64,000 nucleotides of DNA from a phage. The notes under the pieces are model-generated. The model saw only the letters and a list, made by a program, of their open reading frames with translations. It made no database searches and had not been told where the DNA came from. Below, one piece after another: positions 1-64,000 of the stretch. Location of the stretch: assembly GCA_012690745.1 (NCBI GenBank), contig GCA_012690745.1_4086.2, one strand, 5' to 3'. How positions within the stretch are numbered: the first letter of the stretch is position 1; every line of letters starts with the position of its first letter. The position numbers were made by a program, and so were the translations under genes.

Positions 1-330
1 AATCCATTAAAACAATATAATGTTTATGGTGATTCTATTATCAAATTAATCAAAAACAAAGATAGCTTTGATTTTGAAATAAATGTTTTAGATGATAATT
101 TTGACGAAGTACCAGTAAACCCTGAAATCTGTGATATTTTAAACAGTTTAAAAGGTAGTACCTACAATATATCATCTGATTTAATGTTTCAGTACTCATT
201 AATCCATAAAGATATTGAAAAGTATATTGAATGCTCCAAAATTTTGAATTATCTTTACGATGAATTTAAAAAGAGTTCTAAAATAACTGCATACACTTTG
301 TACAATATTCCTAAAATGGTGAATCTTTGA
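1..330 (+). CDS. hypothetical protein, 3' part (5' end outside window); EEYFQ-SLV-D family member
   Basis: frame 1 open from window edge to TGA 328-330; C-terminal LMFQYSLIHKD matches motif of the 46.8-63.9 kb array. Confidence 0.5.
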   Translation, partial: NPLKQYNVYGDSIIKLIKNKDSFDFEINVLDDNFDEVPVNPEICDILNSLKGSTYNISSDLMFQYSLIHKDIEKYIECSKILNYLYDEFKKSSKITAYTLYNIPKMVNL

Positions 331-1463
331 CAAATACAGTACTGGCAACTCCACCGTCTGTAATATATTGTCCAGTACTGTAAATTTGTATACCATCGGT
401 TAAGTAAGTTCTGTATAAAGTTGCTGTAACATATACGTTATTCATATTCATCTCTATTGGTAGTACACATTTGGTATAGGCCGACACATCTGTTTGTGTA
501 CCTATACCCAATTGACCTGCGTTATCGCCTGTGTTATAACCAGTTGCGTAAACACCTAATGAAGTTATAATATGATTAGAAAAATATGAATAACCCACAC
601 TGCTTCTTATTATATCACCTGGTGCTTGTGTTGTTTGTCTTAACGAAATATATGTTTGTGATGTAGAACCATTTGCTAACTGACCAAAGTATTGTCCACC
701 ACCATGATATGCAAATAATTTATTAGTACTATTATTACTTGCTATAGCAAAAGCGAAGTAACTTGAGTTTGTTGTATAATCTTTCACCGTATAGGTATTA
801 GTTATTTGAGAACATAACGTGTACTTTGAATATAACGTCATGTCGGTTGTACCTACGCCTGATATTGCACCAGTATAATACAATCTCCCATCGGTTCCAA
901 TAAATCCTTGCATAAGAAAATTTGCCAGTATTTTGGATGGTGTTACTCCAGTAGGTACTGTTCCTTGTACAAATGATGAAAGTGAATCGGTACTTCTACC
1001 ATTTCCCAGTTGTCCATAACTACCATAACCCGTATTCCATATCGTGTTGTCTGTACATAATACGCTTAATGCACCTGCACTAACTGCAATTTGTTTTATT
1101 GTTTTTCCAAGTGCTGTTATCCTATCAAACACTATCTTTGCAGAAGCCCACGTTGTTGACTTATCAGTTGATAAACCGAATGATGCACCATTTCCAGCAT
1201 ACCACATCGTATTATTTTTCTTTTTAATTAATGTTGACTCATACCCGAACCCATAGATCTTCTACGTTTGTATTGCACAAAATCCATTTCGTTTGTGTTA
1301 TAATATTACCTATACCCATTTGCCCAAACTCTTGAGAGCCTCTACTGTACAACGTACCATCTGACATAAGGGCAAAAACTGTTGTATCAGATGAAGCTAT
1401 TTTTGTAACAGAAGGTTGTATGTTCTTTTTTGATGATGTGATAATTCTTCCAAAGGGTAGCAT
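311..1463 (-). pseudogene. RCC1-like repeat protein paralogue, apparently frameshifted
   Basis: N-terminal ORF 1239..1475 (MLPFGRII from ATG 1463) and C-terminal ORF 311..1207 are in different frames; shift near 1240-1262. Confidence 0.5.
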
Positions 1464-1502
1464 TGTATCCTCCAAATGTAAATCGTTATTATATTTAGGA
1501 CA

Positions 1503-1530
1503 AAAAAATGCCAGTACAAGGCACTGGCAT
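1503..1530 (-). terminator. intrinsic terminator-like hairpin
   Basis: TGCCAGT-N7-ACTGGCA hairpin with A/T run. Confidence 0.45.
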
Positions 1531-1555
1531 AAAATCTAAGCAGAAGGCATATCCT

Positions 1556-1666
1556 TCATCTTAATAAATGAAAATTGTGTACCAGTATTTGTGGTTCCAA
1601 TTTCTTTATTTCAGGAAGAGTTGGTTTAATATTTCCGTACTTTAACATTCTTCCAAAAGGTAACAT
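1556..1666 (-). pseudogene. 36-codon N-terminal remnant of an RCC1-like paralogue
   Basis: MLPFGRMLKYGNIKP... then stop; ATG 1664-1666 directly after stop of upstream gene; no body. Confidence 0.4.
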
Positions 1667-1676
1667 ATTCCCTCCT

Positions 1677-2819
1677 TTATATTATATTTAATTTTTGATA
1701 TGTGGGATATATTTCTTGACTTGGTTTATCTAAAATATATTGTACGTTACCTGCACCATATAAACTACCATCAATAGTAGCTAATTTAACATTAGTATCA
1801 CCAGCCACCCACGATGTCATTTTTGATGCACCTGGAACTAAAGTTGTATTTTTTACGCTGGTGGAAACGGAATTTACCCCCAAACTACTACTTAAGTTAT
1901 ATCCACTACTATAAACTTCACCATTAATTCTAAATTTAACGTATACTGGTAAGTTAACAGCATTACCATAGTTGTAGTTTGTATGCTTTATAAAACGAAA
2001 CTCTGAACTTACATATGTTTCCGGTTGAGCTACACTGTATATATTGTATGACTGAAAGGAAGTACCAGCCGCAGAATTTAATAATCCAGTGTCCCCAGTA
2101 TAGCCACTAAAATAAACAGAAGTAGCATCACTCCACATAAAACAAGATGTTGCAGTTAAATAAAAATCAATCACATTTGACTTAACTACTCTTGGTGTCA
2201 GGTAACCAGTACCGCCCACAGTTGTGAAGCAGTTGAATCTGTTCTCACCCCACGCAACAACGTCGCCATTCGATCTTATTCCACATGCGTTCAGATGACC
2301 AAATTGCATTTTAGAAACACCAGTAAGGTTTGTATTTTGTGTCCATGTAGGGGCGTTTGTTGTAGTACTTGCTAACCCAATCATACTATATAAATTAGAA
2401 CCTAAAACCCAAACTGAACCATCTGCGTTTACAATAAGAGTTGCATGATCACGTGCAACATATATTTCGCTCGCATTGTCAAATTTGTCTTTGATTAAAC
2501 TATCAATGTTAATAAAAACATTACCACTATCTCCATAGGCATATGCTGCTCCACTAAACCAATATGAACTATCATTTTTTAAAATAGTTAATCCAGACTG
2601 ACTAAACCAAAAATTAACCACATTTTCGGCTATTAATGTACGTACTGTAAGTGTTGTTCTATTTCCTAATCCAAATTGACCTGCTGATTGAGTCCCACTT
2701 GCATATAATTTACCATCACTTGTAAGTATTATACAACCATTTATTGTTAAATCTACTTTTTTTATATCAAGTGGGATTATAATATTCCCGTATTGAATCA
2801 TTCTTACAAAAGGTAACAT
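1677..2819 (-). CDS. RCC1-like beta-propeller repeat protein (MLPF-tag family)
   Basis: ORF track; N-term MLPFVRMIQYGN; repeated G-x-N-x-x-GQLG-x-G type blade motifs; SD AAGGAGG. Confidence 0.7.
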   Translation of the reverse strand: MLPFVRMIQYGNIIIPLDIKKVDLTINGCIILTSDGKLYASGTQSAGQFGLGNRTTLTVRTLIAENVVNFWFSQSGLTILKNDSSYWFSGAAYAYGDSGNVFINIDSLIKDKFDNASEIYVARDHATLIVNADGSVWVLGSNLYSMIGLASTTTNAPTWTQNTNLTGVSKMQFGHLNACGIRSNGDVVAWGENRFNCFTTVGGTGYLTPRVVKSNVIDFYLTATSCFMWSDATSVYFSGYTGDTGLLNSAAGTSFQSYNIYSVAQPETYVSSEFRFIKHTNYNYGNAVNLPVYVKFRINGEVYSSGYNLSSSLGVNSVSTSVKNTTLVPGASKMTSWVAGDTNVKLATIDGSLYGAGNVQYILDKPSQEIYPTYQKLNII

Positions 2820-62681: not shown

Positions 62682-62686
62682 AACAA

Positions 62687-63049
62687 ATGAACACATTAAG
62701 TATTACATACTATACAACTAAAAAATTAGTTACTTGTTTAATATCATTGAAGACAAACCATGATGATATGTTTGATATGGCTGCATATGAATTAGAATTA
62801 TCAGAAGATGGCTTCAAGAGCTATGAAGTATATAGCTATGTTCGTGAAGATGTAATTGACACTACACTAATGCAAGAGGATGAGTTATTCCAAGAAAGTT
62901 TAGTATGGGATAATAAGTACGATTGTAACTTTGATTTCTTATGTTTAATCCAGAAAGAAATGAAAAGAATCTTTGATAATTATCCAGTGAAGAGATTGAG
63001 TACTGGACCGGAGCAGTACAGGAGAATTTTATTCCGTTATGAAGACTGA
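62687..63049 (+). CDS. array-4 family protein
   Basis: DELFQESLVWDN. Confidence 0.6.
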   Translation: MNTLSITYYTTKKLVTCLISLKTNHDDMFDMAAYELELSEDGFKSYEVYSYVREDVIDTTLMQEDELFQESLVWDNKYDCNFDFLCLIQKEMKRIFDNYPVKRLSTGPEQYRRILFRYED

Positions 63050-63374
63050 ATTAGTGAAAGTAATGTACGCTACTCATATTAAACTACTACTTGTGAAATT
63101 TGATTATAATAAAAAACATAATGATTTCTATACTTTAATTCGTGATGAAAATACATTCTCCTTGCGATGCAACAATATACCGTTGAAGATAAATGATTTT
63201 ACTTCACTTGACGAGGGTGAATTATTTCAAGAATCATTAGTTTTTAATAGTAATATAAAAATTGATATAGAAGTTATTAAAAAATACCAGATTTTATTGA
63301 ACAAAATTATGAATTGTTATCCATGTGAAATAGGAGGTCATATGCAGTTCAAATCAAAAATGTATGAATTATGA
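63039..63374 (+). CDS. array-4 family protein
   Basis: GELFQESLVFNSN. Confidence 0.6.
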   Translation: MKTELVKVMYATHIKLLLVKFDYNKKHNDFYTLIRDENTFSLRCNNIPLKINDFTSLDEGELFQESLVFNSNIKIDIEVIKKYQILLNKIMNCYPCEIGGHMQFKSKMYEL

Positions 63375-63918
63375 GGTTTATATGTTAGATGAAAAAATGA
63401 ACAATGGAACACAATATAATCATCTTAAGTTGGATACATTCGAATCAGCTATCAGTACTGCACAAGATATAATTGATATTATCAAGTTCATTAAAGAAAA
63501 TAAGTTCAAATGTTTGAAAATACTAAATCGTTCAATGTACCGTGATAAAAATATTCATGTATCAGTACGTAGACCGAAAGATCAAGAAAGTGGGAGAGAT
63601 TTCTATAACAACAGTGAGCAGTTCGAATGTGAATATGATCCAGAATTCAGAGGCGGTTTCATGTGTTACAGTATAAAGGATACCTCACACATTGAGATAC
63701 GTTCATCGAAAGGTGGCATACGTACATTAGAGTTCATTGATATAGTTTTAAATCAGGAATACTACTTTCAACTATCATTATTGTTTCCTGCATACGATTT
63801 AGGAGTTCTATTCATGTATAAGTACTTTCATGAGCACTGGAATGAAGACTTCTATCTGGACTTAGAAGATTACCAATTAGTTTGGAAAGAAATGGTAGAA
63901 CTTCGCAATCCCTCTTGA
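63364..63918 (+). CDS. array-4 family protein
   Basis: QEYYFQLSLLFPAYD. Confidence 0.6.
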   Translation: MNYEVYMLDEKMNNGTQYNHLKLDTFESAISTAQDIIDIIKFIKENKFKCLKILNRSMYRDKNIHVSVRRPKDQESGRDFYNNSEQFECEYDPEFRGGFMCYSIKDTSHIEIRSSKGGIRTLEFIDIVLNQEYYFQLSLLFPAYDLGVLFMYKYFHEHWNEDFYLDLEDYQLVWKEMVELRNPS

Positions 63919-63944
63919 CACCCACCGATTCTTTGTGATATAAT
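63915..63944 (+). promoter_or_regulatory. sigma70-type promoter
   Basis: TTGACA, 17-18 bp spacer, TATAAT; then CCCTTTA-N9-TAAAGGG hairpin. Confidence 0.5.
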
Positions 63945-63977
63945 CCCTTTATATTAATTGTAAAGGGTTATAACACA

Positions 63978-64000
63978 ATGTCCAACGAACTCACATTCAC
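63978..64000 (+). CDS. 5' end of a gene running off the window (MSNELTF...)
   Basis: ATG 63978 downstream of promoter; only 7 codons visible. Confidence 0.3.

Follow-up and report, generated by a model that had tools for sequence, protein, structure and literature searches.

AGTACT, a hyper-abundant palindrome under selection in RaK2-like jumbo phages, is a candidate genome-wide site of a dimeric DNA-binding factor

The 64,000-nucleotide stretch of phage DNA considered here (contig GCA_012690745.1_4086.2 of the NCBI GenBank assembly GCA_012690745.1; hereafter the window, meaning the whole stretch analysed) is densely populated by the palindromic hexamer AGTACT, which is the subject of this report. 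By megablast, the window is 88-96% identical over most of its length to the Asteriusvirus jumbo coliphages 121Q, PBECO4, phAPEC6, Sharanji and fEgEco12, with the genomes of the relatives so matched spanning 348-386 kb. The complete genome of fEgEco12 (PP777464.1; 374,733 bp), for which experiments have confirmed the ends and a direct terminal repeat of 20,993 bp, served as the reference relative. The layout of the window (Table 1) was obtained from the alignment to this genome and from its end sequences, the boundaries of the terminal repeat being approximate; published repeat lengths for relatives are 20,993 and 20,668 bp. Thus laid out, the window runs from a block of RCC1-like paralogues across the left physical genome end into a single collapsed copy of the terminal repeat, where most of the small early genes have their own sigma70-like promoter, and onward into the genes that follow it.

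The original prediction held that AGTACT is far more frequent than composition would allow, and this is borne out by 262 copies against 19.1 in dinucleotide-preserving shuffles (standard deviation 4.4, maximum 31), i.e., an excess of about 13-fold. AGTACT is the top hexamer of the window by z-score, and the runner-up among palindromic hexamers is only 2.2-fold enriched. When the extensions of the motif are compared with expectation, as had been proposed, the excess climbs with the length of the palindrome: from GTAC (646 observed versus 206 expected, 3-fold) through AGTACT (262 versus 22, 12-fold) to CAGTACTG (52 versus 0.7) and TCAGTACTGA (16 versus 0.1). The proposed split by coding status likewise finds enrichment on both sides: with our own set of open reading frames (ORFs), 172 sites are coding (3.2/kb, in all three frames) and 90 noncoding (8.7/kb), with the plus-strand genes contributing 51, 34 and 54 sites in the three frames. 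Ordinary genes have about three sites per kb and the terminal repeat has 6.3/kb, and two segments, 41-45 kb and 49-55 kb, have no site at all.

This trait extends well beyond the window. The fEgEco12 genome has 1115 copies versus 116 expected, found in all 5-kb bins but one, at 2-3/kb in ordinary genes, inclusive of the structural ones, and 6-7/kb in the terminal repeats; in its unique core, coding (2.47/kb) and noncoding (3.17/kb) densities are similar. In samples of 41-50 kb from each of three other genera, AGTACT is again the top hexamer in every case: 82 versus 11 expected in the Yersinia phage fHe-Yen9-04, 125 versus 11 in the Klebsiella phage RaK2, which has a 25-kb zone with 6-8 sites per kb, and 105 versus 15 in the Cronobacter phage GAP32. 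Samples of more distant relatives show no excess (Agrobacterium phage Atu_ph07, 3 versus 5; Pseudomonas phage PA5oct, 1 versus 11.3), and a 35-kb sample of the unrelated coliphage phi92 has 0 copies versus 10.9 expected. A 50-kb sample of Escherichia coli K-12 has three (~0.06/kb), making it about 50-fold sparser than the phage. The distribution across these samples therefore places the trait in the RaK2-like phages of Enterobacterales.

Several lines of evidence point to selection acting on the nucleotides themselves. Codon usage or composition can be rejected as the cause, as the 173 coding copies observed fall to 56.0 +/- 5.7 when synonymous codons are shuffled within genes and to 24.4 +/- 5.2 when codon order is shuffled. 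The dipeptides of the encoded proteins are also affected: Ser-Thr occurs 144 times versus 89 expected (the reverse Thr-Ser 84 times), and is written AGT-ACT in 76 instances against an expected 19.5, and Val-Leu occurs 166 times versus 95 expected (the reverse Leu-Val 74 times). At an overall identity of 87.6% between the window and fEgEco12, AGTACT is kept at 77% of coding and 92% of noncoding positions, as compared to 54% and 70%, respectively, for control hexamers and 65% for flank-matched controls, and the identity per base is 0.94-0.96 within the sites and about 0.90 in their flanks. Between genera (~71% identity), 27% of the sites are retained versus 16-18% of controls, and the density in each genus holds steady at 2-3/kb while the positions turn over. 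Within the core, the sites are spaced slightly more regularly than by chance (coefficient of variation 0.89; longest gap 1976 bp versus about 2667 bp expected). In fEgEco12, the base frequencies around 743 coding sites are at background past about +/-3 bp; therefore, the sites are not pieces of longer repeats. A dispersed repeat or miniature mobile element can accordingly be rejected, with the copies having no extended flanking similarity and most of the sites lying in unique genes. These patterns show a motif under nucleotide-level selection, kept at constant density with positional turnover, in a clade of phages, and are those of a distributed signal such as has been reported for the cyanobacterial palindrome HIP1.

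The sequence that is being selected can be delineated further from its flanks and variants. In the coding sites of fEgEco12 the flanks are themselves dyad-symmetric, with C at -1 in 43% and G at +1 in 46%, whereas G at -1 (9%) and C at +1 (8%) are disfavoured. The flanking triplet TTC occurs 225 times versus 45 expected, with ATC, TCC, ACC and GCC being enriched too, and the optimal form of the site is TTCAGTACTGAA. Variants at the outer positions (TGTACT, AGTACA, GGTACT and AGTACC) are enriched about 2.5-fold, whereas those at the inner positions show no enrichment, save AGTATT and ACTACT at about 2-fold. Even outside complete sites, the pentamers GTACT and AGTAC are about 2.4-fold enriched.

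A second compositional feature, an island without a single ACT trinucleotide on its coding strand, bears directly on this selection. ACT recurs genome-wide at a mean spacing of 48 bp, and the longest gap after that of the island is 342 bp; on the plus strand of the island AGT is at its normal level, and TCT and CTN are reduced. Orthologous blocks (Table 1) extend the feature to four Asteriusvirus lineages, each block holding about 17-20 small plus-strand genes, and their proteins are merely 28-55% identical to those of the window. There is one such island in the 375 kb of fEgEco12, and none in the 150 kb of RaK2 examined. The island proteins have no match in Pfam and only families of unknown function in PHROGs. 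What the islands have in place of the full palindrome is AGTACA, in 38 (window), 44, 47 and 28 copies in the four lineages, against an expectation of 3.2 in the window (calculated for the window and fEgEco12 islands only, at about 3-4). This is about 12-fold over expectation and equals the density of AGTACT in the adjoining DNA. These copies occur in all frames and still prefer C at -1 (41%) and G at +1 (40%), with AGTACC (0-9 copies) and AGTACG (1-2 copies) both rare, and the minus strand of the island keeps TGTACT at full density. The substitution of AGTACT by AGTACA at equal density therefore indicates that the signal is selected and that a degenerate site is tolerated; the excess is not a mutational by-product, the selection is on the density of sites, and whatever reads them tolerates the replacement of T by A at the outer position.

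Since RaK2 has the AGTACT trait without an island in the examined 150 kb, the island is a separate feature, seen here only in Asteriusvirus, and a common cause for the two is rejected on the same grounds. The strand specificity of the island suggests, by analogy with the MazF and MqsR toxins and mRNAs devoid of ACA or GCU, that its transcripts might be immune to an ACU-specific endoribonuclease. If so, the block would be a hint of an unrecognised conflict with a trinucleotide-specific nuclease. The other site-less segment of the window is a tandem array of paralogues (Table 1), which probably arose when a unit lacking AGTACT expanded recently. Directly after the terminal repeat begins a tandem run of more than 20 genes (PHROG 4148) that overlap one another, encode about 70 aa each and occupy 40785-46550.

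Table 1. Features of the window and orthologous islands (window coordinates unless another genome is named)
Feature	Position	Strand	Remarks
RCC1-like paralogue block	1-15 kb	minus	from right part of genome
Intrinsic terminator	2865-2883	minus	GCCAGUAC-UUU-GUACUGGC then U-run, after an RCC1-like paralogue
Similar terminator hairpins	start 4087, 5339, 6602, 7822, 9062; weaker at 1510	minus	
Small genes	15-19.7 kb	plus	
Nearly ORF-free stretch over left genome end	19740-21245 (1.5 kb)		15 AGTACT sites, mostly extended palindromes (ga)TTCAGTACTGA(at), and direct repeats
Left physical genome end	about 20,013		inside the nearly ORF-free stretch
Direct terminal repeat, single collapsed copy	20013-40735 (about 20.7 kb)	plus	~55 small early genes, about 130 AGTACT sites
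Class A promoter (example)	22159-22191	plus	AGTAC joined to -35 hexamer (AGTACTTGCAA), 16-bp spacer, TATAAT
Two-site promoter	27646-27681	plus	AGTACT-aTTGACA-N-AGTACTgg-CATAAT, sites 22 bp apart
Class B promoter (example)	30199-30226	plus	TTGACA, 16-bp spacer with AGTACTG at 3' end, TATAAT
Genes following terminal repeat	from about 40.7 kb onward		
Tandem array of ~70-aa paralogues	40785-45130	plus	zero AGTACT, one AGTAC, GTAC at chance level
ACT-free island	48158-55670 (7.5 kb)	plus	~17 small genes of unknown function, zero ACT on coding strand in any frame
Orthologous ACT-free blocks	fEgEco12 29019-37312 (8,293 bp); CMSTMSU 6652-15113 (8,461 bp); JNE01 9727-14174 (4,447 bp)		

The motif had further been claimed to lie in several unrelated contexts, and every one of those listed is found. 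A position 5' of the -35 element of early promoters is seen in 15 plus-strand copies of AGTACTTGCA, all within 21.7-39.8 kb and joined to a TTGCAA -35 element, and a position ahead of the -10 element in 11 plus-strand copies of AGTACTGTATAAT; in the promoters of this second type (class B), the site is immediately 5' of the -10 hexamer. The extended palindromes foreseen in noncoding DNA are represented by the 16 copies of TCAGTACTGA, of which seven fall within 1.8 kb around the genome end (19.9-21.7 kb). Seven genes of the paralogue block at 1-15 kb are each followed, on the minus strand, by a terminator stem, namely a GCCAGTAC-N3-GTACTGGC hairpin that leads into a U-run. Four such hairpins, when folded, give -12 to -15 kcal/mol with z of -3.4 to -4.7. 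The features of an intrinsic terminator are present only in the seven GCCAGUAC-N3-GUACUGGC hairpins, which account for a few per cent of all AGTACT sites.

There are 11 perfect TTGACA-N16/17-TATAAT promoters in the terminal repeat, and about two-thirds of the strong early promoters (24 of 38) have one or two AGTACT sites, with the other 14 having none. Measured from the start of the -10 hexamer, the sites cluster at -7/-8 (16 sites) and at -27 (8 sites, on the -35 hexamer), and pairs spaced 20-24 bp apart are over-represented. The existence of two different positions, the 14 strong promoters without a site, and the intragenic location of most sites reject the motif as a core sigma70 promoter element. 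Early promoters have other repeated structures as well: a conserved hairpin, GGGGAGAA-TAGTT-CTCCCC, lies just 3' of the -10 element in many of those between 22190 and 40300 (e.g., at 30227-30260), followed by a ribosome-binding site, and looks like a shared 5'-leader structure. A 28-nt hairpin, AAAGGGATTGACTYNGGTCAGTCCCTTT, recurs at 29624-29651, 33666-33693, 36969-36996 and 39228-39255; it includes a TTGACT -35 element, with TATTAT after it, so that one sequence doubles as terminator-like stem and promoter, and the conserved stretch downstream ends in CCCACAGGGTGCA.

Cleavage by the terminase at AGT^ACT to form the genome ends is likewise rejected, as the ends of fEgEco12 are not at sites and neither is the physical end at about 20,013. 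The ORF-free DNA at about 20700-20950, some 0.7-0.9 kb inside the left end, has direct repeats of a GGCTAGACGGCTAAACGGCTAGATGGTTACACGTCTGGAAGTATAGAC-like unit, which may be part of a packaging, injection or origin signal. The terminal repeat is also where the E. coli Chi octamer GCTGGTGG is concentrated. The window has 9+3 copies versus 0.2+0.3 expected (fEgEco12, 24+12 versus about 1.7+1.3), at positions 20590, 20602, 26958, 27020, 31028, 32489, 33754, 36137, 37544 and 39341, several of them intergenic and some as inverted pairs CCACCAGC..GCTGGTGG. Such enrichment could attenuate RecBCD at the genome ends. Further, an 84-aa early protein of the repeat (35512-35763, plus strand) scores above the curated cut-off for the ParE-like toxin domain PF24732 (E = 3e-10). 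Among solved structures it has no relative by sequence, and it may act as a poison of gyrase or as an RNase of the RelE type.

Two interpretations had been offered with the original prediction, namely that AGTACT is the site of a phage DNA-binding protein, or that it relates to modification or restriction. The first would fit the data best, being supported by the symmetric flanks of the coding sites, the enrichment that rises with palindrome length and the selected AGTACA, and the second is not supported. That a large excess is spread over several unrelated contexts points, as originally suggested, to recognition at the level of DNA. Hence, the reading tentatively favoured here is that AGTACT, with its optimum TTCAGTACTGAA, may be the selected genome-wide site of a DNA-binding factor with twofold symmetry, common to the RaK2-like jumbo phages and most likely encoded by them. 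Among the features expected of the operator of a dimeric protein, dyad symmetry, graded tolerance to substitution and overlap with promoters are observed here, and the even density of the sites irrespective of position would suit such a factor as well. With one site per 350-400 bp in all gene classes and one per ~160 bp in the 21-kb terminal repeat, a dimeric factor with a footprint of roughly 12 bp would occupy phage DNA every few hundred bp. As the phage is about 50 times richer in sites than the E. coli sample, such a factor would also bind phage DNA about 50 times more densely. The array might therefore be seen as marking phage DNA as self by its sequence, with a use in protection, organisation or recruitment; the phage lacks both modified bases and a nucleus of its own. 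Because the promoter positions are typical of those used by repressors, the same factor could switch off the early genes, with occupancy at the terminal-repeat promoters repressing early transcription.

Certain observations weigh against this proposal. Neither the 145 ORFs of the window nor the five fEgEco12 proteins annotated as regulator, DNA-binding or DksA-like, which were scanned alongside five others, yield a helix-turn-helix or other DNA-binding domain in Pfam. An ordinary repressor would be titrated away by the ~1100 sites of each genome, and the factor would thus need to be very abundant. The fixed promoter positions may stem from the duplication of promoter cassettes and not from independent selection, and a reader acting on each strand separately would yield identical symmetric statistics. 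That a protein reads AGTACT, which protein this might be and what its binding does are all inferred.

A bolder form of the favoured reading is that the array is a viral self-identity code, by which a dedicated factor, injected with the DNA or made early, would tell phage from host DNA; this is a possibility that we regard as rather doubtful. The factor would then serve in protection from host or phage nucleases, in organising the replicating pool or in a global shut-off of early promoters. If true, such a code would be a third strategy beside base modification and compartmentalisation, would account for how phages with unmodified DNA and no nucleus handle a large DNA pool, and would provide a simple sequence signature for spotting members of the clade in metagenomes.

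Among the alternatives, that of an epigenetic mark is unlikely; here an orphan methyltransferase of the phage would act on AGTACT, and the high number of sites would serve a methylation-dependent process, as has been proposed for HIP1. In its favour, the hyper-abundant selected palindrome HIP1 occurs alongside orphan methyltransferases in cyanobacteria. The clade does have a C5 methyltransferase (PF00145; 286 aa; fEgEco12 g455, with RaK2 ORF194 in synteny and 76% identity in CBB) and a Dam-type N6-adenine methyltransferase (PF05869), and the absence of the motif from the phi92 sample suggests a ScaI-type restriction pressure, against which a phage with 1100 sites would need protection. However, a cognate methyltransferase, which the original prediction had suggested looking for, is not present in the window, and none in fEgEco12 is assignable to AGTACT. 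The authors of the RaK2 study reported 5-methylcytosine in a CpG context from bisulfite data, and AGTACT has no CpG; moreover, phi92 encodes a 50%-identical homologue of the C5 enzyme without having the motif in its sample, on both of which counts this enzyme is rejected as the reader. A shared PF01555 methyltransferase fails too, as the one in the Yersinia phage has no counterpart in fEgEco12. A type II restriction-modification target is not supported either: the symmetric flank preferences and the 12-fold selection of AGTACA misfit a strict type II specificity, and no methyltransferase of the window or of fEgEco12 can be matched to it. Substitutions at the sites show no surplus of C-to-T decay products. 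The DNA of fEgEco12 is reported to be cut normally by ten enzymes, including SpeI (ACTAGT), and is therefore without bulky modification. The earlier suggestion of modification or restriction thus finds no support in the CpG context of the methylation, the phi92 homologue or the selected AGTACA. As a separate matter, GATC is about two-fold under-represented in fEgEco12 (73 versus 131 and 78 versus 150 per 50 kb) despite the encoded Dam-family methyltransferase, and only mildly so in its relatives.

Somewhat further down the scale of plausibility is a strand-specific enzyme that would read 5'-(A/T)GTACT-3' on each strand, such as a T4-type primase at a strong start site (minimal ACT, primer pppGUACU) or another replication or recombination enzyme, with the palindrome merely catering for both strands together. 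Primases recognise trinucleotides with a central pyrimidine, and the primers of T4 are pentamers. GTACT and AGTAC are enriched beyond the full sites; a single factor of this kind could join the ACT-free plus strand of the island to the full-density TGTACT on its minus strand. Nevertheless, the occurrence of the trait in RaK2 without an island in 150 kb makes the two features separable, we see no rationale for an 8-kb zone that is unprimable on one strand, and the exact placement in promoters is left unexplained. To our knowledge, there is also no precedent for primase sites being over-represented as hexamers.

Recruitment or titration of an enterobacterial DNA-binding protein is improbable as the role of the sites; the obvious candidate for such a host protein is the nucleoid-occlusion factor SlmA, whose recruitment would block cell division. 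The SlmA-binding sequence GTGAGTACTCAC has AGTACT at its centre, with A4 and G5 strongly required, and resembles the phage site in its dyad symmetry, its reader being a dimeric helix-turn-helix protein. The motif-rich phages all infect Enterobacterales, with the Pseudomonas and Agrobacterium relatives lacking the motif, and cells infected by the Asteriusvirus Sharanji filament as phage DNA spreads through them, with no division inhibitor known. The core matches, but the flanks required by SlmA (G1, T2, R3) are at or below chance: GTG occurs 7 times versus 25 expected and GTA 24 versus 36, sites with at least 4/6 flank matches number 42 versus 87 expected, and 354 kb contain no complete GTRAGYRCTYAC site. 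C predominates at position 3, the preferred TTC thus placing a pyrimidine at the purine position of SlmA. E. coli has about 50 SlmA sites as opposed to the ~1100 AGTACT sites of the phage, and no SlmA homologue is encoded in the phage DNA examined. On the grounds of flanks and missing homologue, SlmA recruitment is rejected.

There is comparably little probability that the motif acts at the RNA level, with AGUACU in the transcripts of either strand being an endoribonuclease cleavage or processing site, or a self-complementary structure, which would make for rapid turnover, above all of early mRNAs. AGTACT is densest in the early genes and makes terminator stems, an entire gene block is free of ACU as expected of transcripts immune to an ACU-specific RNase, and the early region encodes a protein with a domain of the ParE/RelE superfamily. 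Yet, AGUACA is 12-fold selected inside that very block, and thus the selected feature needs no ACU in mRNA; a perfect palindrome with symmetric flanks is not needed for an RNA motif; the noncoding DNA of the genome end has an equal site density; and the benefit of having all mRNAs cleavable is hard to see. Finally, the absence of any function, with the excess arising from biased mutation or repair or from repeated cassettes having spread (the motif does occur in repeated units, namely promoters, terminators of RCC1-like paralogues and two copies of the terminal repeat), is highly improbable, as the tests of conservation and of substitution already contradict it: unique coding DNA, structural genes included, holds 759 sites, the sites are more conserved than their flanks, dipeptide usage is skewed toward the motif, the island turns to AGTACA instead of dropping the signal, and the tandem array at 41-45 kb displays what DNA free of such selection looks like.

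No paper linking AGTACT to these phages was found in the literature searched; promoters, terminators and methyltransferases are covered by the genome papers on CBB, RaK2, phAPEC6, fEgEco12 and Sharanji, but this motif is not. Certain parallels can nonetheless be struck with known systems. ScaI and Eco255I are names of restriction-modification enzymes for AGTACT. Sites of this type, the same hexamer, are missing from the phi92 sample, in keeping with restriction pressure. Phage genomes normally avoid restriction sites, whereas AGTACT is 10-fold enriched here, and its flank preference and the tolerance of AGTACA are at odds with such enzymes. One practical corollary is that, with ~1100 ScaI-type sites, those of these phages that are therapeutic candidates should be highly sensitive to AGTACT-specific restriction unless protected. 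Phage proteins that occupy many genome sites and repress early promoters have precedents in TF1 of SPO1, a phage with these promoters in a terminal redundancy, p6 of phi29 and C1 of P1. None of these involves a hexamer palindrome that reshapes codon usage genome-wide, and TF1 tells phage DNA apart by a modified base, not by sequence. The DNA uptake sequences of Neisseria and the uptake signal sequences of Pasteurellaceae are protein-read self tags that occur about once per kb, lie in coding DNA in several frames and often form inverted pairs as terminators. They differ from AGTACT in being non-palindromic 10-12-mers read by the competence machinery at uptake, for which a lytic phage has no counterpart. 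Chi is again an over-represented self-marker read on DNA, and its enrichment in the phage indicates that identity signals are exploited by the phage, but it lacks symmetry, depends on orientation and has RecBCD as its reader.

Of known phenomena, the highly iterated palindrome of cyanobacteria, HIP1 (GCGATCGC), comes closest. Like AGTACT, it is a short palindrome that is many-fold over-represented in both genic and intergenic DNA, is conserved above its surroundings and maintained by selection, and has no apparent gene-level function; a role in chromosome structure has been proposed for it. AGTACT shows the same hallmarks, i.e., a genome-wide excess, presence in genes in all frames as well as between them, and conservation above background. 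HIP1 differs in being an octamer of cellular genomes that contains the sites of two orphan methyltransferases, whereas AGTACT has a hexamer core, belongs to a virus and has no evident cognate methyltransferase; its clade has C5 and Dam-type enzymes, and the methylation reported in RaK2 is of cytosine in the CpG context. AGTACT is a viral, hexamer-core counterpart of HIP1. The function of the latter has been open for decades, and its equivalent in culturable lytic phages with genomes of ~350 kb makes the problem experimentally tractable.

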